Shown here in pieces: positions 2,054 to 30,983 of a DNA stretch of 64,000 nucleotides. How positions within the stretch are numbered: the first letter of the stretch is position 1; every line of letters starts with the position of its first letter. The position numbers were made by a program, and so were the translations under genes. A model generated the notes under the pieces. That model did no database searches, was not told the origin of the DNA, and was given only the letters and a program-made list of their open reading frames with translations. Source of the stretch: an uncultured Atopobiaceae bacterium (GTDB lineage Bacteria; Actinomycetota; Coriobacteriia; Coriobacteriales; Atopobiaceae). The stretch lies in the NCBI GenBank assembly GCA_944320975.1, contig CALUJM010000009.1, forward strand, positions 18,484 through 82,483. Reading direction: 5' to 3'.

Positions 2054-2848
2054 TTGGACACTACGATCATCGACGACTCCCACCGCAGCATCGCCGGGGC
2101 CGAGACGGCCATCACCATCCGCGACTTCGACCTGTGGTACGGGGACTTCCAGGCTCTCAAGAAGGTCAATCTTGAGATTCCGCGCAACCGCGCGACGGCC
2201 TTCATCGGCCCTTCCGGCTGCGGCAAGTCCACGCTGCTGCGCACGTTCAACCGCATGTGCGACTTCGTGGAGTCCGTGCGCACCGAGGGCACGATCGAGT
2301 TCGACGGCAAGGACATCTTCAAAATGGACGCCAACGCCCTGCGCGTGTACGTGGGCATGGTCTTCCAGCACCCCAACCCCTTCCCGATGAGCATCCGCGA
2401 GAACATCCTCTACGGGCCCAAGCGCATGCGTCGCATCTCCAAGTCCGAGGGCGACGAGATCTGCGAGCGCTGCCTCACTCGCGCCGCGCTCTGGGACGAG
2501 GTCAAGGACGACCTCAACAAGAGCGGCCTGGGGCTCTCCGGCGGCCAGCAGCAGCGACTCTGCATCGCGCGCGCCCTTGCCACCGACCCCGAGATCCTGC
2601 TCATGGACGAGCCCACCTCGGCCCTCGACCCCATCTCCACGAGCATGGTCGAGCAGCTCATGTGCGAGCTCGCCGAGGACCACACCGTCGTCGTCGTGAC
2701 CCACAACATGCAGCAGGCCACGCGTGTGGCCGACAAGACCGCCTTCTTCTACCTGGGCGAGCTCGTCGAGGAGGGCCCCACGCGCGAGCTCTTCGGCAAC
2801 CCCAGGCAGAAGCGCACGCAAGAGTACCTATCCGGGAGGTTCAGCTAA
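2054..2848 (+). CDS. pstB: Phosphate ABC transporter ATP-binding protein PstB (copy 2)
   Basis: 264-aa ORF with Walker [19 protein letters not shown] and ILLMDEP. It is a tandem paralogue of the preceding gene. Confidence 0.9.
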
Positions 2849-3543
2849 TGGTCATCAGCACCCGCACCAAGTTCACCGACCAGCTCAACGACGTCGAGGG
2901 CTACATCAGGCGCTTCGGCGAGAAGACCGTGTCCGACATCCGCGCAGCGGGCCTCGCCGCCCGTGGCGACAAGGGGGCGGCCGAGGGCGTCATGGACGGC
3001 CGCAAGGCGGAGGATCGCCTGCGCTCGGCCATCGAGAACACCTGCCTCGACATCATGCTGCTCCAGCAGCCGCTCATCGGAGTGGACCTGCGCTTCGTCT
3101 CGGGCGCCTTCCGCATGGTGAGCGACCTCTCTCACATCGACTCCATGACGCGTGACGCGGTCTTTCTCACCGAGGAGATCCCCGAGAAGGCTTCGGCCAA
3201 GATCGAGGCCGAGATCTCGCGGATGAGCGAGGGTGCTGCGGACATGGTCCAGAAGGCCGTCGACGCCTTCTGCGCCTCTGACGTCGAGGGCGCGCAGCAG
3301 GTCATGGAGGCCGACGCCGCCATCAACGCGCTGTACGTCGAGGTCGAGGAGAAGCTCGTCGCCCTCATCCGCGACGGCAAGTCCTCCGCGCAGTACCTGC
3401 CGGAGCTCCTCATGGTGGCCAAGTACTTCGAGCGCATCGGCGACCTCGCCAAGCGCATCGCCGCGTGGGCGATCTTTCGCGTGACCGGGGAGCACACCAT
3501 CGCCGAGAAGGAGAGCCAGCGACAGGCGCCTGCGGCGGAGTAG
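2848..3543 (+). CDS. phoU: Phosphate signalling regulator PhoU
   Basis: ATG 2848 overlaps the pstB stop (TAATG). The protein has a two-repeat PhoU architecture ending in ...AKYFERIGDLAKRIAAWAIF. Confidence 0.9.
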   Translation: MVISTRTKFTDQLNDVEGYIRRFGEKTVSDIRAAGLAARGDKGAAEGVMDGRKAEDRLRSAIENTCLDIMLLQQPLIGVDLRFVSGAFRMVSDLSHIDSMTRDAVFLTEEIPEKASAKIEAEISRMSEGAADMVQKAVDAFCASDVEGAQQVMEADAAINALYVEVEEKLVALIRDGKSSAQYLPELLMVAKYFERIGDLAKRIAAWAIFRVTGEHTIAEKESQRQAPAAE

Positions 3544-3584
3544 GGTACAGTAGGGTAGGTATCGAGTATCGGGAAGGAACAGCG

Positions 3585-4265
3585 GTGGTCTACTACGTAG
3601 AGGACGACAAGAACATCCGAGAGCTGACGGTCTACGCCCTCGGCCAGGGCGGCATCGAGGCGCGCGGCTGCGCCGACGACGCCGAGTTCCGTCGTGCCTG
3701 CGCCGAGCGCACCCCCGACGCCGTCCTTCTCGACATCATGCTGCCGGATGCGGACGGGCTGGAGATCCTTGCCCGCCTGCGCCGCACCCCCGGGCTCTCC
3801 CACGTCCCCGTCATGATGCTCACCGCCAAGGATACCGAGCTCGACACCGTCAAGGCGCTCGACTCCGGGGCGGACGACTACCTCTCGAAGCCCTTCGGCA
3901 TGATGGAGATGGTGAGCCGCACGCGCGCGCTGCTGCGTCGCTCCGGCCGCGAGACCGCCGTCCAGGAGAAGCCCGCCTCCCTGGTCTCCGGCGACGTGAC
4001 CCTGTGGCCTGACCGCCGCGAGGTCACCGCCGGGGACCGGGAGGTCCAGCTCACGATGCGCGAGTTCGACCTCCTGGAGTTCCTCATGCGCTCGCCGGGC
4101 GTCGTCTTCTCGCGCGAGACGCTGCTCCAGCGCGTCTGGGGCTGGGACTTCGACGGCGGCTCCCGCACCGTCGACGTGCACGTGCAGCAGATCCGAGCCA
4201 AGCTCGGCGACTCGTCGGACCTTATCGAGACCGTGCGCGGCGTCGGTTATCGCGTCCGCGGATAG
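3585..4265 (+). CDS. OmpR/PhoB-family response regulator
   Basis: GTG 3585 is preceded by GGGAAGGA. It has a receiver domain (VYYVEDD...LLDIMLPDADG...MLTAKD) and a winged-helix C-terminus (RTVDVHVQQIRAKL...TVRGVGYRV). Confidence 0.85.
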   Translation: MVYYVEDDKNIRELTVYALGQGGIEARGCADDAEFRRACAERTPDAVLLDIMLPDADGLEILARLRRTPGLSHVPVMMLTAKDTELDTVKALDSGADDYLSKPFGMMEMVSRTRALLRRSGRETAVQEKPASLVSGDVTLWPDRREVTAGDREVQLTMREFDLLEFLMRSPGVVFSRETLLQRVWGWDFDGGSRTVDVHVQQIRAKLGDSSDLIETVRGVGYRVRG

Positions 4266-4269
4266 GTGC

Positions 4270-4378
4270 GTGTGACAATTAGGACTGGTGCGACAATTGG
4301 GACAGGTTGAATTGTCACATAGGTACGATGTGACAATTCAACCTGTCCCAATTGTCGCACCAGTCCTAATTGTCACAC
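4270..4378. repeat. Family A palindrome, copy A1: perfect 50-bp arms, 9-nt loop, between response-regulator and kinase genes
   Basis: GTGTGACAATTAGGACTGGTGCGACAATTGGGACAGGTTGAATTGTCACA, loop TAGGTACGA, then the exact reverse complement. I verified the arms base by base. Confidence 0.95.
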
Positions 4379-4388
4379 CGAGAGGGGG

Positions 4389-5786
4389 ATGTCCATGACC
4401 AGGCAGCCCGGGCGCAAGGGCTCGCTCTCGCACAGGATGTTCGTGGCGTTCGTCGTGGCGTGCGCCAGCGTGGCCGTCGTGGTTACCACGGCGGCCTCCC
4501 TGCTCTATCAGTCCGCCTTCCTCGTCGACGAGCACGAGCAGCTCGCCGCCGAGTGCCGGACCCTCGCGTCGCTTCTCGACCAGACCGACGATGATGCGGC
4601 GGTCCTCTCGGCGCTCGAGCTCGGCGACATCCGCGCGACGCTCATCGACCCCGACGGCTCGGTCACCTTTGACTCGCAGGCCGACGCCGGCACGCTGGAG
4701 AACCACGGCGACCGCCCCGAGGTGGTCGCCGCCTTCGAGACGGGCTCCGGCGCCTCCGAGCGCGCGAGCGACACCGTTGGCTACACCAGCCTCTACGAGG
4801 CTGAGCGCCTCGAGTCGGGCCAAGTCATGCGCCTGTCCGTCGACCGCGCCGGCGTCCTGGCGTTCCTCTTCCAGGACCTCGTCCTTCTCGTCCTGCTCGC
4901 CGTGGTCCTGGTGGCCGCGAGCTGGGTGATCTCGCGCCGGCTCTCGCGGCGCTTCGTGCAGCCGATCCTCGAGATCGATCCGTCCTCCGGCGACGGGGTG
5001 GCGCCCTACGTGGAGCTCGACCCCCTCGTCACGCGCCTGAACGAGCAGCACGAGGAGCTCCTTCACCGCATGCGCGCGGTCCAGGACGCCGCCGACCTGC
5101 GCCGCGAGTTCACGGCAAACGTGACGCACGAGCTCAAGACGCCCATCGCGTCCATACAGGGCGCGGCAGAGCTCATACGCGACGGCATCGCCAAGAAGAA
5201 GGACGTCCCCGAGTTCGCCGGGCGCATCTACGATGACGCGCGACGCCTCTCGGACCTGGTGAGCGACATCCTCACCCTCTCCAAGCTCGACGACTCCGAG
5301 CGCAACGGCGACCAGGAGCTCTTCGAGCCCTCCGAGACCGTCGACCTGCTCTCGGTGGCGCGCGACGTGACCGACCGCCTGGGGCCCAAGGCGCGCAAGG
5401 TCGGCGTCGGCGTGAGCGTGGGCGGCGTTTCGTGCCCCGTGCGCGGCAACGCGCGCCTGATCGACGAGCTCGTGACCAACCTCTGCGACAACGCCATCCG
5501 CTACAACCGCGTGGGCGGCAAGGTCTACGTCTGGGCGCTTCCCGTGGACGGGCGCCCGGCGCTGCGCGTGAGCGACACGGGCATCGGCATCCCCGCCGAG
5601 GCCCAGCCCAAGGTCTTCGAGCGCTTCTACCGCGTGGACAAGGGGCGGAGCCGCGACATGGGCGGGACGGGCCTGGGCCTTGCCATCGTCAAGCACGCGG
5701 CCGCCTATCACGACGCGGAGATCAAGCTCGAGAGCGAGATCGGCAAGGGCACCACGATCACCGTGCTGTTCCCGTCGGCGGCGTGA
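4389..5786 (+). CDS. Sensor histidine kinase (PhoR/SenX3-like partner of the preceding regulator)
   Basis: Contains two TM segments, an H-box (FTANVTHELKTPIASI), an N-box (CDNAIRYN) and G-boxes (DTGIGIP, GGTGLGLAIVKH). Confidence 0.85.
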   Translation: MSMTRQPGRKGSLSHRMFVAFVVACASVAVVVTTAASLLYQSAFLVDEHEQLAAECRTLASLLDQTDDDAAVLSALELGDIRATLIDPDGSVTFDSQADAGTLENHGDRPEVVAAFETGSGASERASDTVGYTSLYEAERLESGQVMRLSVDRAGVLAFLFQDLVLLVLLAVVLVAASWVISRRLSRRFVQPILEIDPSSGDGVAPYVELDPLVTRLNEQHEELLHRMRAVQDAADLRREFTANVTHELKTPIASIQGAAELIRDGIAKKKDVPEFAGRIYDDARRLSDLVSDILTLSKLDDSERNGDQELFEPSETVDLLSVARDVTDRLGPKARKVGVGVSVGGVSCPVRGNARLIDELVTNLCDNAIRYNRVGGKVYVWALPVDGRPALRVSDTGIGIPAEAQPKVFERFYRVDKGRSRDMGGTGLGLAIVKHAAAYHDAEIKLESEIGKGTTITVLFPSAA

Positions 5787-5874
5787 GCGCCTGACGCCGC
5801 GTCCTTCTTAAGAAAACCTGTCAGGTTTCGCCCCTTCGTGCGTATCGTAGGTAGAGACGACGAGGGGAGGGGAC

Positions 5875-6381
5875 ATGCGCGCGAAGAAGCAGGCGGTGAG
5901 GTTGGTCAATGACTACGCCGACCTCATCCTGCGCCTCTCCTACACCTATCTGGGGTCGACTGCCGACGCCGAGGACGTTTGCCAGGAGGTCCTCCTCAAG
6001 CTGCTGGGTCGCGCCGAGGGCTTCGAGGGCCCCGAGCACGAGCGCGCCTGGGTGGTGCGCGTGACGGCCAACCACTGCAAGGACCTGCTGCGCCGCCGCG
6101 CCGCGCGGCCGACCGTCGCGCTCGACGAGGCGCCGGAGCCTGCAGCGCCCGAAACCGTCGATGCTCGCGGGCGCGCCGAGCTCGTCCTGCGCGCCGTCAT
6201 GCGCCTCCCTCTCGAGTACCGGGAGGCCATCTTCCTGCGCTACTACGAGAACTACTCCGTTCGTGACATCGCCCGGGCGTGCGGCTGCGGCGAGGACGCG
6301 GCCGCCGCGCGCCTGAGCCGCGGCCGCGCAAAGCTGAAGGTGCTGCTCAAGGAGGCTGGTTACGATGAAGAAGACCTTTGA
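5875..6381 (+). CDS. ECF-type RNA polymerase sigma-70 family factor
   Basis: 168 aa. It has region 2 (DAEDVCQEVLLKLL...ERAWVVRVTANHCKDLLRRR) and region 4 (LEYREAIFLRYYENYSVRDIARACGCGEDAAAARLSRGRAKL). Confidence 0.85.
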   Translation: MRAKKQAVRLVNDYADLILRLSYTYLGSTADAEDVCQEVLLKLLGRAEGFEGPEHERAWVVRVTANHCKDLLRRRAARPTVALDEAPEPAAPETVDARGRAELVLRAVMRLPLEYREAIFLRYYENYSVRDIARACGCGEDAAAARLSRGRAKLKVLLKEAGYDEEDL

Positions 6382-7405
6382 CGCGTATCGGGAGGGCCTC
6401 GACGCCCTGTCCTTCTCGCCTGCCGAGAAGAACGAGCTGGTCAAGGAGCTGGTTTCCGCGGCTTCGCCGCGCCGGCACCCGTGGACGGCGCGCGCTGCGG
6501 CGGCGGCCGGCATCGCGGTCGTGCTGGGCGCGGGCGCGGTCACCGCCTACGCCACGGGCGCGCTCGGGGCGGCGGCGGAGTTCCTCCAGGACGTCTTTGG
6601 GATGCGGGACGAGCAGGTCGAGGACGTGTCGCGCATGGCCGGCGTCGCCGGCTCGTCGGCGACCGACGGCGGGGTCACGGTCTCCGTCTCCGCCGTGATC
6701 GGCGACGACACGTTCTACGCCGTCGTCTACACGCTAGACCCGGAGGACCCCGCGCTCTTCGACGGCGTCGAGCGCTTCGAGGACGGGAAGGTCGGTCTGG
6801 CGCTGGGGCCCGAGGGGTCGTTCTTCCCGCTCGTCTCCGACAGCGATTCCGGCAGCGCGAGCGCCTACTTCTACGACGCCGACCCCGAGGATCCCGCCCT
6901 GCAGCTCGTGCAGCTGTGCTGGGCCCAGACGGAGGGGGGGCTCGCCGGCCAGACGGCCCACGTGACCCTGCATGACCTCTATGGGTGGGGCGACGAGGGG
7001 CGCTCGGCGGAGCCGATCGCCGCGGGGACCTGGGAGCTCGACGTGCCCCTCGAGTACGAGGACACCTCCGTTGAGCTGGCGAGCGGACTCGAGACGACCT
7101 TCAACGGCTGCGACGTGACGATCGGTCGACTGACGCTCTCCGCGATCGGCGTCCACGTTGAGTACACGCTCTCGGGCGAGCCGCTCGAGGTCAGCCGACA
7201 GGGCTGGGAGTTCAACATTCCGGTCGTGGTTACGCTCAAGGACGGCCCCTCCATCGACGCCACGTGGTCCGGTGGCTCTGGCGAGACGCTCGAGGCGGGC
7301 GGGACGGCTCGGATGAACAAGGGCATGGGCTTCGACCGCATCATCGACGTCGAGGACGTCGCGAGCGTGCGCGTGGGCGACCTCTGGATCGAGCCGGGCG
7401 CGTAG
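6365..7405 (+). CDS. Putative anti-sigma factor (single-pass membrane protein, DUF4179-like)
   Basis: Overlaps the sigma gene by 17 nt. It has a short cytoplasmic N-terminus, one TM helix (AAAAAGIAVVLGAGAVTAYA) and a large extracytoplasmic domain. Confidence 0.6.
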   Translation: MKKTFDAYREGLDALSFSPAEKNELVKELVSAASPRRHPWTARAAAAAGIAVVLGAGAVTAYATGALGAAAEFLQDVFGMRDEQVEDVSRMAGVAGSSATDGGVTVSVSAVIGDDTFYAVVYTLDPEDPALFDGVERFEDGKVGLALGPEGSFFPLVSDSDSGSASAYFYDADPEDPALQLVQLCWAQTEGGLAGQTAHVTLHDLYGWGDEGRSAEPIAAGTWELDVPLEYEDTSVELASGLETTFNGCDVTIGRLTLSAIGVHVEYTLSGEPLEVSRQGWEFNIPVVVTLKDGPSIDATWSGGSGETLEAGGTARMNKGMGFDRIIDVEDVASVRVGDLWIEPGA

Positions 7406-26993: not shown

Positions 26994-27512
26994 ATGGCAC
27001 TTTCCGCCGAAGTCACCGCCGTCCTCAACGAGCAGATCAACAAGGAGATGTACTCCGCCTACCTCTACCTCACCTTTGCCGATTACTACGACGACCGCGG
27101 CCTCAAGGGCTTTGCCAACTGGTACGAGATCCAGGCCAAGGAGGAGATGGACCACGCCCTGGCCATCCGCCGCTACCTGCTCGATAACGACTTCCGCCCT
27201 GCGATGGAGGCCATCGCCAAGCCCGACAAGACCTTCGAGAGCGACCTCGCGCCGCTGGAGGCCGGCCTCGAGCACGAGGAGTACGTCACGAGCCTCATCC
27301 ATCACTGCTACGAGGTCGCTCATGCCGCCCACGATGTCCGCACGATGAAGTTCCTGGACTGGTTCGTGGAGGAGCAGGGCGAGGAGGAGACCAACGCCCG
27401 CGACATGATCACCAACATGAAGCTCTTCGGTTGCGACCCCAAGGGGCTCTACGACCTCGATCGCGAGTACCAGGCGCGCACCTACGTGCAGTCCGCCTCC
27501 CTCAAGCTCTAG
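26994..27512 (+). CDS. ftn: Ferritin (non-haem, FtnA-like)
   Basis: Ferroxidase-centre residues occur in LNEQINKEMYSAYLYL...EEMDHA...EHEEYV...EEQGEEE. ATG 26994 follows GAGAAAGGAA. Confidence 0.85.
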   Translation: MALSAEVTAVLNEQINKEMYSAYLYLTFADYYDDRGLKGFANWYEIQAKEEMDHALAIRRYLLDNDFRPAMEAIAKPDKTFESDLAPLEAGLEHEEYVTSLIHHCYEVAHAAHDVRTMKFLDWFVEEQGEEETNARDMITNMKLFGCDPKGLYDLDREYQARTYVQSASLKL

Positions 27513-27537
27513 CTGTCAAAAGGGGACGTGACGGGCT

Positions 27538-27582
27538 GTGACAATTAGGGCAGGTGACAATTTAACCTGTCCTAATTGTCAC
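27538..27582. repeat. Family A palindrome, copy A2 (short form)
   Basis: GTGACAATTAGGGCAGGT, loop GACAATTTA, then ACCTGTCCTAATTGTCAC (1 mismatch). It lies after the ferritin gene. Confidence 0.85.
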
Positions 27583-27635
27583 GCCCCAACTGTCACGCCC
27601 GCCGCTTGTGGAGATAATCTGGCGAGAAAAACCCG

Positions 27636-27664
27636 TTGCCGCGGCGCCATCCGCGTGCTATTCT
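27636..27664 (+). promoter_or_regulatory. Candidate sigma-70-type promoter of the infC-rpmI-rplT operon
   Basis: TTGCCG (27636-41), a 17-nt spacer, then TATTCT (27659-64), about 190 nt upstream of infC. Confidence 0.4.
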
Positions 27665-27779
27665 CGTCAAGTGTGCTTTTGCGAAGTGGGATCGAAAGCG
27701 GGTCCCCACCTACACGGCGCCTCACGGCTGCTGTCTGGTCAGACAACGTATGCTCTTCTCGCCTTCGGGCGAGCGATGT

Positions 27780-27817
27780 CTCCCGGACGCCGCTGCTTGG
27801 TGTCGGGAGCTTTTTTG
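27780..27817 (+). terminator. Leader attenuator terminator upstream of infC (L20-leader-like arrangement)
   Basis: The stem CTCCCGGAC / GTCGGGAG (one bulge) is followed by TTTTTT (27811-16), 38 nt before the infC start. It is preceded by the small hairpins GTCTGgtCAGAC and CTCGCCttcgGGCGAG. Confidence 0.55.
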
Positions 27818-27854
27818 TGGCGCAAGCCGCAGATGTGAGAGGAAGGGGTTCGAC

Positions 27855-28430
27855 ATAGCCAGGAACGATGGTCCTCGCATCAACGAGGAGATTACGTCCC
27901 GCACGTGCCGTCTGATTGGCATCGACGGCTCCCAGATGGGTCTGTTCGGCGTTCGCGACGCGCTTCGCATCGCCCGCGACCAGGGCCTCGATCTCGTCGA
28001 GATCGCCCCCAACGCGGAGCCGCCCGTCTGCAAGATGCTCGACTACCGCAAGTTCAAGTACGAGCAGGACCGCAAGGCCAAGGCCGCCCGCAAGAACCAG
28101 GCCAGGGTCGAGGTCAAGGAGATGAAGTTCCGTCCCAAGATCGACGTGGGCGACTACGAGACCAAGAAGGGTCACGTCATCCGCTTCCTCAAGAAGGGCG
28201 CTCGCGTCAAGATCACGATCATGTTCCGCGGTCGTGAGATGGCGCATCCGGAGCAGGGGCGCATGGTGCTCGATCGCCTTGCCGAGGACCTGAAGGACGT
28301 CGCGACCGTCGAGCAGAAGCCCCTCATGGAGGGTCGCAACATGCACATGACCATCGTCCCGATCAAGGGCGCCTTTGACGAGAAGCCCAAGACCGAAGAC
28401 GAGAATGTCACTACGGAGAAGGAGAACTAG
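27855..28430 (+). CDS. infC: Translation initiation factor IF-3
   Basis: Canonical IF-3 sequence ([21 protein letters not shown]...[24 protein letters not shown]...). No ATG/GTG/TTG lies at the conserved N-terminus. An in-frame ATA at 27855 follows GAGGAAGGGG, consistent with the unusual infC start codons known in bacteria. Confidence 0.85.
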
Positions 28431-28431
28431 C

Positions 28432-28629
28432 ATGCCCAAGATGAAGACGCACAAGGGTACGGCAAAGCGCTTCCGCCGCACCGGCTCTGGCAAGATCATG
28501 CGCGCCAAGGCGTTCAAGAGCCACATCCTCACCAAGAAGTCGCCCAAGCGCATCCGCGGCTTCCGCCAGGAGACCGTCATCTCTCCTGCCGACGTCAAGA
28601 CCGTCTCCCAGCGTATGGGTTCCAACTAG
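28432..28629 (+). CDS. rpmI: 50S ribosomal protein L35
   Basis: [37 protein letters not shown]... The ATG is 1 nt after the infC stop. Confidence 0.95.
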
Positions 28630-28677
28630 GCGCGCGAGCGTCCCGAGAAGTACTTTCCAACGAGGAGTTGATTAGAT

Positions 28678-29037
28678 ATGGCACGAGTCAAGCGCGCCGT
28701 CGCCGGCCGTAAGAAGCGTCAGACGCTCGTCGAGCGCACCAAGGGTTACTACGGAGTCCGCTCCCGCACCTTCCGCGGCATGAAGGAGCAGGCTCAGCAC
28801 TCCGGTCAGTACGCCTACCGCGATCGTCGCAACAAGAAGCGCGACTTCCGCGCCCTGTGGATCCAGCGTATCAACGCCGCTGCCCGCATGAACGGCCTCT
28901 CCTACAGCCAGTTCATGCACGGTCTCAAGCTCGCCGGCGTCGAGCTTGACCGCAAGGTCCTCGCCGAGATCGCCTACAGCGACGAGGCCACCTTCGCCGA
29001 CATCGCCGAGGTCGCCAAGAAGGCCCTCGCGGAGTAG
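28678..29037 (+). CDS. rplT: 50S ribosomal protein L20
   Basis: [33 protein letters not shown]...; 119 aa. Confidence 0.95.
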
Positions 29038-29067
29038 GTGACAAAGGGACATTCCCTTCGCCGCATC

Positions 29068-29100
29068 GCGCCCCGGGTTACGACCCGGGGCGCATTTTGT
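29068..29100 (+). terminator. Rho-independent terminator after rplT
   Basis: The 11-bp stem GCGCCCCGGGT (29068-78) / ACCCGGGGCGC (29083-93) has loop TACG and is followed by ATTTTGT. Confidence 0.85.
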
Positions 29101-29239
29101 CTAGGTCATATGCCGTTTACCACCAAATTGGTGCCGTCTACGAAAGACATGACGACGATTGCTTAAACTCTGGCTACACGGGAACAAAGACTATGACGTC
29201 GGCAATCGTCGCTACCCACAAAGCGACCGACAGAGGAGG

Positions 29240-29488
29240 CGAGTCCAGTGAACAGCGATCAGATAGCGGGGTTTGGACCCGCCTTCCGCGCGACCGAGAC
29301 CCTGTAGCTTCGGGCGAGCGCACTCGCCAACGTCTTCCGACGCGTTGTTCGGATTGGGTCGTTGACAGAAGCTGCGGAGCGGGTCCAGACATTGAATCGC
29401 TAGCTGTCCTACATACACCGCAGAGGCACGGGCGATTCCAGAGTTTAGATGAGGCGGGGCGGCGCAATGGGGCGCCGCCCCTGTTTTA
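29240..29488 (+). ncRNA. Candidate structured non-coding RNA of unknown family (5' end undefined), ending in an intrinsic terminator
   Basis: Three nested long-range helices: 29254-59/29396-401, 29271-82/29379-90 and 29302-11/29368-77. The latter two contain G-U pairs possible only in a plus-strand transcript. They enclose the local hairpins GGCGAGcgcaCTCGCC and CGTCttccGACG. A terminator lies at 29456-88. No plausible CDS is present. Confidence 0.4.
29456..29488 (+). terminator. Rho-independent terminator closing the candidate ncRNA region
   Basis: The stem GGGGCGGCGC (29456-65) / GCGCCGCCCC (29472-81) has loop AATGGG and is followed by TGTTTT. Confidence 0.75.
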
Positions 29489-29556
29489 TGCGTGACGCCG
29501 CTATGCCATGGTAGGGCCCGGTACCGCGGGGGTGGCGGCACCGGGCCAGATCATGT

Positions 29557-29580
29557 GTCGAGAAGAACGTTCTTCTCGAC
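29557..29580 (-). terminator. Perfect 24-nt palindrome immediately after the CAP-domain gene stop (possible terminator hairpin; made of two copies of the dispersed GAGAAGAAC motif)
   Basis: GTCGAGAAGAAC|GTTCTTCTCGAC lies 2 nt from the stop codon at 29583-85. There is no clear U-run on the minus strand. Confidence 0.45.
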
Positions 29581-29582
29581 GC

Positions 29583-30983
29583 TTACTTACATCCGTACCA
29601 GCCTATGCCCTCGTCCTTCCATCCGAGGGAGACGAGCATGTCGCGCTCGCCGGCGTTAGCCGTGTAGTTGTGGGTGCCCGTGACGGCGTTGGGATTGTAC
29701 TGGCGGTAGAGGGGCATGCCGTCCGAGCCAGCAGAATACCAGCCGATTCCCTCGCCGGTCCAGCCGAGGCTCACAAGCCAGTCGTACTCGTCCTTGTCCA
29801 TCGTGTAGTGGTGGTCGCCACCGACGACATGCGAGTTGTAGAGGCGGTAGACGGGGTCTCCGGTGACCGGTGCGACCCAGCCCGCGCCTTCGTTCTTCCA
29901 TCCGAGCGAGATGAGGTTCGCGCGCTCGTCGGAGTTGCTGGTGTAGAAGTGCTCCCCGGTGTTGGGGTTGTAGAGGCGCCACATGATCTGCGTCTGTCCC
30001 GGGATGGCCTCCGGCAGGTCGACCGAGCCTCCGCCCGGGTTGGCGGCGCTTCCGCCGCTCACCACGAAAGCGCGGGTCCACGTGTGGCCGCCCTGAGAGG
30101 TGGCGGTCACCGTCGCGGTTCCATTCGAGACTGCGGTGACGACGCCGTGTTCACTCACCGTGGCAACGTTCTCGTTCGAGGACTTCCATGTGTAGAAGTC
30201 AGGGTCGGCAGGGCAGAAGACGTAGTCCCAGCCGGGATTGGGGATCCCGACGCGCAGCTCGTAGGTGTCTCCCGCGGAGAGGGAGACGGTGTCCTCCTGG
30301 GCCTGGTTGAGGTTGAATCCGGATTGGGAGAGGGGAACCGTTGCGTAGCTGAAGCCGATCGTCGCCTGCCCGTAGACGGACCCCGACTGAACGGTGCCCG
30401 TTGCCGCGCCCCGCCCGAAGAGCTGGGTCCAATATGTGACGCCGCCCACGGTGAAGCAACCGACGCCGATCGAGTTCCAGGAACCCATGATGTTGGACCT
30501 GTGCCCCGGGCTGTTCATCCACTGGCTCATCGTCGCCGCGGGCGTGCTGGAGCCTGCGGCGATGTTCTCACCGGATGCCTTGCCGGAGATGGTGAAGCAG
30601 CTGGAGCCGTCGGGGCGGGTATGGCTGAAGTTGAGGGCGCACTCGGCGGAGCGAACCATTGCGGCCTCTGTCAGGTCCTCGTCCATGGAGAGGGGGCTCA
30701 GGCCCTGTGCCGCGCGCTCCTGGTTGACGAGGTCGACGATCTGCCGTGCATAGTCGTAGTTGAGGAGCCCCGTCATGCCCGTGACGTCGTCGACGGATGC
30801 CATCAGATCGATGCTGTCTTGATCTTGGCGGACGGCGGCGTCGATTGAGGGCGCCGTCAGGGCCGATGCCTCGCGGGGATACGCCGTGAAGGAGAGAAGC
30901 ACGGCGAAGAGCGCTGTCGCGAGCAGGCTTGCCGTCGCGCGCCGTCCTGCGGTCGGCATTGTCTTTCTGTTAGACATGGGCAC
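29583..30983 (-). CDS. Secreted multidomain protein: signal peptide + CAP/SCP (YkwD-like) domain + Ig-like (Big_2-like) domain + three C-terminal ~45-aa repeats
   Basis: Signal peptide (ATASLLATALFAVLLSFTAYPREASA). CAP motifs (VNQERAAQGLSPL...HTRPDGS...GENIA...WMNSPGHRSNI). Ig-like segment (VATVSEHGVVTAVSNGTATVTATS). Three repeats of the type YRLYNPNTGEHFYT..E...L.SLGW..EG.GW. Confidence 0.8.
   Translation of the reverse strand: MPMSNRKTMPTAGRRATASLLATALFAVLLSFTAYPREASALTAPSIDAAVRQDQDSIDLMASVDDVTGMTGLLNYDYARQIVDLVNQERAAQGLSPLSMDEDLTEAAMVRSAECALNFSHTRPDGSSCFTISGKASGENIAAGSSTPAATMSQWMNSPGHRSNIMGSWNSIGVGCFTVGGVTYWTQLFGRGAATGTVQSGSVYGQATIGFSYATVPLSQSGFNLNQAQEDTVSLSAGDTYELRVGIPNPGWDYVFCPADPDFYTWKSSNENVATVSEHGVVTAVSNGTATVTATSQGGHTWTRAFVVSGGSAANPGGGSVDLPEAIPGQTQIMWRLYNPNTGEHFYTSNSDERANLISLGWKNEGAGWVAPVTGDPVYRLYNSHVVGGDHHYTMDKDEYDWLVSLGWTGEGIGWYSAGSDGMPLYRQYNPNAVTGTHNYTANAGERDMLVSLGWKDEGIGWYGCK

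Follow-up and report, generated by a model that had tools for sequence, protein, structure and literature searches.

A predicted structured small RNA gene carrying a short open reading frame beside rplT in Atopobiaceae

Dual-function small RNAs (sRNAs) such as SgrS/SgrT, RNAIII/hld, and SR1/SR1P encode a peptide that is conserved and active, and their open reading frame (ORF) and base-pairing domain are largely separate. Leader-peptide attenuators include trpL, ilvL, and pheM, the last of which is located just downstream of rplT in E. coli. Here we analyze the spacer that follows rplT in a 64,000-nucleotide (nt) stretch of DNA from an uncultured Atopobiaceae bacterium (contig CALUJM010000009.1), referred to as the window in its whole length. 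A preliminary description had proposed a novel plus-strand structured RNA in this spacer, other than a riboswitch of a gene further downstream, and the conservation, the covariation in alignment A8 (see below), and the lack of any family match bear this out. With high confidence, we identify positions ~29178–29488 of the plus strand, from sequence comparison, as a stand-alone RNA gene of ~310 nt that belongs to an undescribed family and carries a conserved small ORF (sORF). The start previously set at 29240 truncates the element, as conservation extends from ~29134 and the RNA probably starts near 29178. The parts are arranged in the order promoter-like block, A/C-rich leader, hairpin H1, ribosome-binding site, 19-codon ORF, three-way junction, variable hairpin, second ribosome-binding-site-like unit, and terminator (Table 1). 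The G+C content of the spacer is 56–60% compared with 67.8% for the whole window, in agreement with the earlier remark that the spacer is less GC-rich than its surroundings.

The window sequence from 29203 to the terminator is 87–99% identical to that of relatives with an identical rplT protein. In these relatives (Thermophilibacter/Olsenella, Atopobiaceae) a gene for a 459–461-amino acid LuxR-type protein, composed of two transmembrane-plus-GerE modules, is found between rplT and the element. A search based on an alignment of the LuxR protein gave 19 more loci, and in 18 of the 19 the element follows the LuxR stop codon and is 74–91% identical to the window. Over 28 loci the identity of the element is 74–99%, compared with only 40–45% between clades for the adjacent LuxR proteins, indicating that the element is far more constrained than this neighbor; the flanking rplT and ilvC proteins are 93–99% identical in the LuxR-retrieved loci. 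The LuxR tree disagrees with that of the element, and the element is kept intact in the window although the LuxR gene has been deleted. The 19-mer GGAGGCGAGTCCARTGAAC gave 79 matches in species-representative genomes where our own estimate is ~9 expected, and ~47 of these are full-length Atopobiaceae homologues, whereas ~27 further matches are located in Oscillospirales (Acutalibacteraceae, Ruminococcus sp. CAG:563, CAG:488, and others). Four further members were retrieved from metagenomes with a 17-mer from hairpin P4. Altogether roughly 44 Atopobiaceae genomes at the species level contain the family (Thermophilibacter, Olsenella, Paratractidigestivibacter, and others). It usually adjoins rplT, and four genomes have a second, more divergent copy elsewhere.

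The minimum-free-energy fold differs modestly from shuffled sequences (z = −2.9 for the plus strand and −2.3 for the minus strand), and folding alone would therefore not establish an RNA; conservation and covariation do. An RNAalifold consensus computed from 21 MAFFT-aligned relatives retains H1, P2, P2a, P3, P4, P5, and the terminator. A covariance model of the core (R1) was built and 55 Atopobiaceae homologues were aligned to it (alignment A8). In A8, 95.3% of 1,696 cells are paired; both sides have changed in 17 of 32 pairs (144 cells), and 0 of 500 shuffles matched these values. Sliding the partners by 1–3 columns lowers pairing to 32–42%, and the revised structure is 97% paired on the MAFFT-only alignment. 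The compensatory changes are located in P2, P2a, P3, and P5, whereas P4 is almost invariant. P2 is 94–100% paired and includes an AU↔GC compensatory column among others. P2a shows UA↔CG covariation at one pair, has a clade-dependent register, and is 71% paired on the MAFFT alignment. Two-sided changes are present in four of the five pairs of both P3 (97–99% paired; GC/AU, CG/UA/GC) and P5 (92–97% paired; closing pair UA, AU, GC, or CG). H1 and P4 are both 100% paired with changes to G-U only, none of those in H1 (21 sequences) being compensatory. In the predicted structure P2, P2a, and P3 close a three-way junction that bears P4 and P5, and the full junction domain folds at −60 kcal/mol. The P2 changes in the second copies are compensated, for instance GUCCGGACCC/GGGUCCGGAC.

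All five helices and hairpins of the preliminary description can be drawn at the positions it gave, and conservation was found for some of them. The 12-bp long-range helix (29271–82/29379–90, our P2) is 100% paired in the MAFFT alignment of 21 relatives and is supported by homology and covariation, whereas the 6-bp helix (29254–59/29396–401) and the 10-bp helix (29302–11/29368–77) are 63% paired each and lack such support. Among the local hairpins, GGCGAG/CTCGCC is 100% paired and TCCGA/TCGGA is conserved, but CGTC/GACG is 67% paired; this hairpin and the 6- and 10-bp helices are specific to the window sequence. The three long-range G-U pairs noted on the plus strand are present, and the many G-U pairs of the fold together with the T-tract argue for this orientation. 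The variable hairpin H4 occurs in the single folds of 21 of 21 Thermophilibacter-clade sequences with a variable loop, but it was rejected as a universal hairpin sequestering unit 3, as pairing with the upstream arm is found in 37 of 49 homologues and the register differs in the Olsenella clade. A kink-turn or box C/D-like arrangement of the P3 flanks, considered by eye, was likewise rejected because the tandem G-A is not conserved.

Table 1. Positions of the predicted RNA gene, its parts and its flanking features in the window
Feature	Positions	Strand	Description
Promoter-like block	29134–29169	+	CCGTCTACG (−35-like; TTGnCG in relatives), spacer, TGCTTAAACT (−10-like; TGnnTAAR in relatives)
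5' leader (probable)	29178–29207	+	GGGAACAAAG..., A/C-rich
H1 hairpin	29208–29227 (29208–13/29222–27)	+	GTCGCT/AGCGAC, 8-nt loop
Unit 1, ribosome-binding region	29236–29248	+	Shine-Dalgarno sequence GGAGG (29236–40) overlapping GGCGAGTCCAG (29238–48), up to the start codon
Small ORF	29249–29308	+	GTG, 18 codons, and TAG (29306–08); encodes MNSDQIAGFGPAFRATETL
P2, 5' strand	29271–29282	+	GTTTGGACCCGC, inside the ORF; partner 29379–90
P2a	29286–29289 with 29374–77	+	CCGC with GCGG; short extension
P3	29298–29302 with 29356–29360	+	GACCC with GGGTC; not in the preliminary description; stop codon directly after the 5' strand
P4 hairpin	29313–29328	+	GGCGAG-CGCA-CTCGCC
P5 hairpin	29336–29353	+	TCCGA ... 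TCGGA, variable loop
P2a and P2, 3' strands	29374–29390	+	Contain unit 2
Unit 2	29376–88	+	GGAGCGGGTCCAG in the P2 3' strand; more diverged copy of unit 1, by inspection
H4 variable hairpin	29394–29438	+	GAATCGCT ... GGCGATTC; 3' arm within unit 3
Unit 3	29431–29441	+	GGCGATTCCAG, internal repeat of unit 1; GGGUGAUUCCAAAGUACAG in most relatives
Intrinsic terminator	29456–29488	+	10 G-C pairs (29456–65/29472–81), 6-nt loop, TGTTTT; terminator scan
rplT terminator	29068–29093 (stem)	+	Terminator scan
LuxR/GerE remnant	29113–29166	+	Last ~54 nt, stop TAA 29164–66; aligns (29113/29134–29166) to the LuxR 3' end of relatives
CAP-domain gene	29583–30983	−	Next gene in the window, convergent with the RNA

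The spacer had been described as having no credible ORF, a view contradicted by the 19-codon frame that opens with GTG 8 nt downstream of the Shine-Dalgarno (SD) sequence and is conserved in relatives. The frame is intact, with a length of 16–21 codons, in 51 of 52 unique Atopobiaceae variants and in 25 of 25 clostridial relatives. The Atopobiaceae start codons are GTG in 43 cases and ATG in 9, and the frames end in TAA, TAG, or TGA. In all ~29 sequences that were retrieved without this motif the SD, the spacer, and the start (GTG or ATG) are invariant. The 24 nt between the start codon and P2 are the most variable sequence of the element, yet they contain no indel in 52 sequences; indels of 1–2 nt are frequent in the other loops, and the Olsenella clade has a 3-nt deletion within the frame. 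The ratio of nonsynonymous to synonymous polymorphism (pN/pS) is 0.85 and 1.13 with no frame standing out, and the conserved positions of the ORF are conserved at all three codon positions. The complementary motif GGRCC(C)GCC is read as GGA CCC GCC (Gly-Pro-Ala) in Atopobiaceae compared with A GG GCC GCC (Arg-Ala-Ala) in clostridia. This difference in codon phase between the two phyla, together with pN/pS values close to 1, indicates that the peptide itself is probably unconstrained, and it is apparently the RNA motif that is conserved rather than the amino acids. From the conserved start, frame, and stop we infer that translation is conserved and the peptide is not.

The Oscillospirales homologues share a 5' module with those of Atopobiaceae, comprising leader, ribosome-binding site, sORF, and a helix between the ORF and a downstream segment. 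In clostridia the 19-mer GGAGGCGAGTCCARTGAAC opens a frame of 16, 17, or 20 codons, e.g. MNSTEAQLNRAAATTV and MNSADETQFNMAAIRYC, with an N-terminal spacing of 18, 21, or 30 nt, and the other two frames close after 0–8 codons. This frame forms the 5' end of a 600–1000-nt region devoid of longer ORFs, which in locus L145 starts with a canonical TTGACA-17-TAATAT promoter, followed by GGGAAACAACAAAAA, and ends with a terminator. The 3' half of the clostridial ORF pairs with a segment ~100 nt downstream whose sequence co-varies, the duplexes having energies of −20 to −24 kcal/mol compared with −14 ± 3 kcal/mol for shuffles, and the P2-like partner likewise ends in GGCAGGCGAGUGGG. The clostridial RNAs contain 8–14 units of the form RRAGnGUGAGU-N3-4-AWG, spaced ~50 nt apart (L145:1090-2090 (−), L166, L146, L169, L177). 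Every listed unit with an AUG (A-type) consists of AUG, two codons, and a stop (TAA, TAG, or TGA), such as AUG UUU UAU UAA, AUG CAC AUU UGA, and AUG UAC AUC UAG, whereas B-type units have no start codon. The RNA gene in Oscillospirales is always divergent from a block made up of a gene for a ~99-amino acid protein, which looks DUF1292-like by eye, 6S RNA (RF00013; L120:896-1083, L131:6756-6944, L145:2529-2719, and L178:888-1078), and a gene for a 228-amino acid protein.

Repeated units are also present in the window, where the pattern GGNGAKTCCAR matches at 29238–48 and 29431–41 only, with 0.61 matches expected in 64 kb. An extended complementarity of the unit to the 3' tail of 16S rRNA (GGAGGCGAGUCC compared with GGAGGUGAUCC, by eye) was considered and rejected, as a conserved mismatch and a bulge argue against simple pairing. 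The ORF segment GGACCCGCC (29275–83) is complementary to the ribosome-binding region GGCGAGUCC (29238–46), and the resulting hairpin, alt A, is found by RNAalifold on close relatives and in single folds in both phyla, with −22 kcal/mol here. Codons 9–18 of the ORF constitute the 5' strands of P2, P2a, and P3, and a translating ribosome would thus have to open the three-way junction. In the proposed mechanism, alt A would be the first to form as the RNA is transcribed and would block initiation at the sORF start, and the downstream strand containing unit 2 would then displace it. The functional output would be ribosome transit rather than the peptide, given that start, frame, and stop are conserved but the amino acids are not. 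The repeated units suggest that the RNA interacts with either the translation apparatus or a factor recognizing initiation regions, which it would report on or titrate. With low-to-moderate confidence we propose a trans-acting RNA in which a toggle between P2 and alt A couples the fold to translation of the sORF. A new RNA gene with a trans action coupled to sORF translation is the best explanation for the whole of the observations, and we consider it about equally likely to hold or to fail.

Several observations weigh against this explanation. The trans mode of action and any target are hypothetical, and the transcription start, the independent promoter, and the translation of the sORF are predictions. 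A simple sigma-70 scan calls no promoter at 29134–29169, and the −10-like element there does not end in the customary T. Compensatory changes do not support alt A, because its 5' arm never varies, and the P2-compensated changes in the second-copy paralogues weaken it. Most homologues of the broad set were retrieved with a 19-mer that spans the SD and the start codon, so that invariance there exists by construction, and the sets independent of this motif (retrieved via rplT, LuxR, a 26-mer inside the ORF, and the P4 17-mer) are smaller, with ~29 sequences. In most sequences frame +2 stays open over 36 codons, showing that frames of at least 16 codons are not rare in GC-rich DNA, and the strong constraint on the ORF region at the RNA level means that part of its conservation is no evidence of translation. 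One homologue, L101:3303-3599, which is the same as L154 (Olsenella uli strain An733), is the only one with a 1-nt deletion in the sORF (GGACCC to GGCCC). Finally, alignment A8 was itself fitted with the model, and the few clades represent few independent events. The L101/L154 deletion also bulges P2, and the close relative L128 is intact; an error in sequencing and a naturally occurring frameshift allele are both possible.

The element could instead be a purely noncoding sRNA in which ORF, SD, and start are RNA motifs (the GNGAGUCCA unit and helix strands) and the frame is a by-product. The pN/pS values near 1 without a distinguished frame and the conservation across all three codon positions suit this explanation, as do the commonness of open frames in 68% GC DNA and the recurrence of the unit at 29431–41 and, without a start codon, in the clostridial B-type units. 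However, in the AT-rich clostridia, where the other frames shut so early, frame 0 stays open for 16–20 codons in 25 of 25 sequences, and indels within the frame are multiples of 3, as opposed to the 1–2-nt indels common in other loops. The stop is always there yet varies among three codons, the start in the unbiased sets is only GTG or ATG, the SD spacing is optimal, and all clostridial A-type units read AUG, two codons, and one of three different stops. A noncoding RNA is unlikely, and the element is, as judged from the conserved frame, better described as a structured RNA carrying an sORF. The opposite explanation, in which a 16–21-amino acid peptide (MN[ST][ED][ED]...) is the product and the structure merely controls its mRNA, draws on the strong translation signals, the conserved frame, and some cross-phylum similarity at the N terminus (M-N-S/T, an acidic residue, then Q-F). 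It is quite improbable given that purifying selection at the amino acid level is lacking, that the C-terminal halves are wholly different between clades (FGPADRATEVL, FGPAACTL, NRAAATTV, NMAAIRYC), that the codon phase of the conserved nucleotides is not the same in the two phyla, and that ~180 nt past the stop codon match the ORF in their degree of conservation and covary. The invariant second codon of the sORF encodes Asn (AAC).

Beyond the coupling of fold and translation that we favor, the RNA of the window may represent the short version of an mRNA-mimic family that spans both phyla and engages the translation machinery through repeated ribosome-binding-site units, a possibility we regard as rather unlikely. 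One repeat would open a frame of 16–21 codons whose peptide is irrelevant, and many of the clostridial repeats would open AUG-NNN-NNN-stop. Conceivable functions are the titration of initiating ribosomes or of certain tRNAs, the sensing of capacity for translation, or the release of formyl-tripeptides; the RNA would be for the ribosome what 6S RNA is for RNA polymerase. The gene adjoins 6S in clostridia and infC-rpmI-rplT in Atopobiaceae. The same location, beside another decoy for the expression machinery in clostridia, is in keeping with a decoy or sponge resembling CsrB, in which the units (3 here, 8–14 in clostridia) titrate a factor that recognizes initiation regions (a protein or the 30S subunit) and the sORF is translated incidentally. 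The internal repeats and the free expansion of their number between lineages would fit a decoy as well. On the other hand, the GGA-in-loop format of CsrA sites is not seen in the units, most of units 2 and 3 is engaged in base pairs in the Thermophilibacter clade, and a partner is not known, making a decoy a distinctly doubtful alternative, although it is compatible with the best explanation rather than exclusive of it.

The neighbors of the element are inconsistent in identity and strand, which argues against a cis-regulatory role. In Olsenella-type genomes, which have no LuxR gene here, the order is rplT terminator, promoter-like block, RNA, and, 300–400 nt further on the same strand, ilvD-ilvB, whereas in Thermophilibacter the LuxR gene lies between rplT and the RNA. 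The second copies are near an unrelated gene for a 250–280-amino acid protein, and the genes downstream of the clostridial homologues vary and lie on either strand. A leader-peptide attenuator or riboswitch acting in cis on ilvD-ilvB (Olsenella), the CAP gene (some Thermophilibacter), or gatCAB (L118) would account for the layout of short ORF, structure, and terminator, and for the same-strand ilvD in Olsenella-type genomes, the plus-strand CAP gene in L081/L082/L091, and the GatC/A/B-like ORFs in L118. But in the window the gene that comes next converges on the RNA, so that the earlier statement that no plus-strand gene follows is correct; the same arrangement is found in L083/L087-L089/L092, and the second copies and clostridial homologues have unrelated neighbors on either strand. 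In addition, inspection found no conserved antiterminator complementary to the 5' arm of the terminator, and the peptide has no regulatory codon run (none in 77 peptide variants). A cis leader of ilvD, CAP, or gatCAB was rejected on account of these inconsistent neighbors and is very improbable for the family. The element as a non-functional leftover of the LuxR 3' untranslated region, stranded by deletion, would explain its position ~40 nt past the LuxR stop in Thermophilibacter with no terminator between, but its conservation far exceeds that of LuxR, it covaries, and its occurrence without LuxR in Olsenella-type genomes, second copies, and clostridia contradicts this, leaving a negligible probability. 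In L118, a metagenome-assembled genome labelled Collinsella sp., the RNA (2804–3149) lies ~260 nt upstream of ORFs that resemble gatC, gatA, and gatB by eye (3387–7027); a tie between these neighbors and the Asn codon of the sORF is possibly a coincidence.

The boundaries of the predicted gene were placed by comparison of the homologues. In 34 aligned upstream regions the promoter-like block directly follows the rplT terminator in Olsenella-type genomes, and in Thermophilibacter it is located inside the LuxR 3' end. We infer that positions 29134–29169 contain the promoter of the RNA gene, with its hexamers assigned by pattern. The last ~15 codons of LuxR (...VPSAGK..PSAEDSATS) are conserved at the nucleotide level (L083:4391-4430, L088:2738-2780). 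An overlap of the LuxR 3' end with the promoter-like block would explain both this conservation and the retention of 29134–29169 in the window. The transcript probably begins near 29178, and the leader pattern GGGRAnAnAA..AACAAAG is conserved in Atopobiaceae. At the other end, a terminator hairpin with a T-run is present in 55 of 55 homologues; its sequence does not vary within the Thermophilibacter clade, and the Olsenella clade has different, likewise complementary stems in its place. The strong terminator already reported at 29456–88 was recovered with its stem (29456–29481) and T-tract on the plus strand.

The element could not be assigned to any known family. A scan of the window against Rfam 15 gave no match to the spacer at the gathering threshold and only two tRNAs elsewhere, the best sub-threshold matches at E ≤ 10 in 28950–29650 were terminator look-alikes of at most 20 bits, and ARAGORN found no tRNA and no tmRNA in 28900–29700. 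The covariance-model search that the preliminary description had recommended thus assigned no family, and its failure to match the region to tmRNA, RNase P, SRP, 6S, or riboswitches agrees with these results. In the Olsenella and clostridial homologue loci Rfam matched only 6S and tRNA, at other positions. No earlier description of the RNA was found in literature searches, but large catalogues of microbiome RNA and small-ORF candidates (PMC8040213, PMC11364881) may list it unnamed. Within the 64-kb window there is no other copy. No homologue was found by blastn, nhmmer, or the covariance model in the post-rplT spacers of L001-L026 (Lancefieldella/Atopobium, Collinsella), and the family is absent or unrecognizable in the rplT loci of Lancefieldella/Atopobium and Collinsella and in L111. 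Many Collinsella rplT contigs (L007-L025) end 300–420 nt past rplT, which suggests an assembly-breaking repeat there (rRNA operon, insertion sequence (IS), or similar); in L018 and L023, two Collinsella loci that extend further, the RNA family was not detected. A phage or mobile origin was rejected, with 0 matches in viral contigs and the IS elements of L084 and L086 being separate insertions.

The flanks of the RNA gene have been rearranged repeatedly. In the window the tandem membrane LuxR gene and its 5' region have been deleted (compare L081:3360-4912 and L083:2890-4427), and the LuxR remnant is fused into a spurious 42-amino acid ORF (29038–29166) ending in ...VPSTKDMTTIA, which matches the LuxR C terminus (deletion region 29094–29166). 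In L084 (2069–3444) and L086 (1904–3279), metagenomic contigs with an identical rplT protein, rplT and LuxR are separated by an inserted IS element, which is composed of an HTH_23/HTH_28 ORF and an rve integrase ORF. The gene for a CAP/Big_2/DUF5648 secreted protein, which is convergent in the window, is co-oriented in the An293 clade (L081/L082:5404+ (+); L091/L095) with ~61% protein identity, and it is absent from L083/L089/L092, where ilvC is directly next; this spot is a recombination hotspot. The CAP gene stop is directly followed by a perfect 24-nt palindrome, GTCGAGAAGAACGTTCTTCTCGAC (29557–29580), and then by a second GC-rich hairpin (29524–29550), which together are probably a minus-strand terminator region opposing the terminator of the RNA. 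Upstream, infC is preceded by a long 5' region (27500–28680), in which no L20 leader (RF00558) or other ribosomal leader was detected at Rfam gathering thresholds.

If correct, these assignments add a widely conserved RNA gene, not in Rfam 15, in two abundant groups of gut bacteria, and an unusually clear natural case of a frame that is kept for translation and is physically part of a covarying fold. The family would provide a testable system for the remodelling of a trans-acting RNA by ribosome traffic, for which isolates exist (Olsenella uli DSM 7084, Thermophilibacter), and the clostridial arrays of 3-codon mini-ORFs offer a way to ask if dedicated RNAs buffer or sense the translation apparatus. 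The assignments also indicate that genes missing from annotation reside in the seemingly empty spacers beside ribosomal-protein operons of Coriobacteriia, and that what would be the promoter of an RNA gene can coincide in part with a neighboring protein gene, here LuxR. We conclude that this is probably a new family of sRNA carrying an sORF, with a non-negligible chance of something more unusual.

Compared with known systems, the element shares single features with several classes of RNA. A conserved three-way junction recalls riboswitches, whose conserved aptamer lies in the 5' untranslated region of the genes under their control, but there is no consistent downstream gene. In tmRNA, an acceptor/T-arm domain resembling that of tRNA is combined with a tag frame that lacks an SD or AUG. 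Like tmRNA, the element is structured, of a housekeeping type, and contains a short internal frame, but it has no tRNA-like domain, its own SD and GTG/ATG start, and no ...ALAA-type tag. Type I toxin-antitoxin loci encode a hydrophobic membrane peptide with an overlapping antisense RNA, whereas MNSDQIAGFGPAFRATETL is hydrophilic and acidic and the G-U pairs and T-tract support the plus strand only. CsrB/RsmZ carry many GGA motifs in hairpin loops that bind CsrA/RsmA. As in these RNAs, the element contains multiple copies of a ribosome-binding-site-like motif whose number varies between lineages; the motif, however, is GNGAGUCCA(N)AUG-like, GNGA(G/U)UCCA, rather than a loop GGA, units 2 and 3 lie largely within stems, and one unit is the start site of a conserved ORF. 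CreT of the CRISPR-associated CreTA module is a mini-ORF RNA toxin that acts via translation and not via its peptide, with strong initiation signals, two consecutive rare codons, and a downstream stem-loop, and is located beside creA and cas genes (PMC8501985). The initiation signals and downstream structure of the element are similar, as are the clostridial units of AUG, two codons, and stop, but the frame here has 19 codons without tandem rare codons, the flanking ORFs and Pfam domains show no cas context, and the family is chromosomal and housekeeping-like, adjoining rplT or 6S.

By function the element most resembles the dual-function sRNAs and leader-peptide attenuators. With attenuators it shares the short ORF, the intrinsic terminator, and the proposed translation-driven remodelling, and its position after rplT recalls pheM. 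In contrast to attenuators it has no consistently co-oriented operon, it contains a three-way junction and repeated units, and the alternative between alt A and P2 concerns the ribosome-binding site rather than the terminator. There is no sequence or Rfam relationship between the element and dual-function sRNAs. As in dual-function sRNAs, the element would stand alone as a structured RNA that is a few hundred nucleotides long, ends in a terminator, and has a short frame predicted to be translated; unlike in those RNAs, the peptide appears to be unconstrained and the ORF itself forms the 5' strand of the conserved helices.

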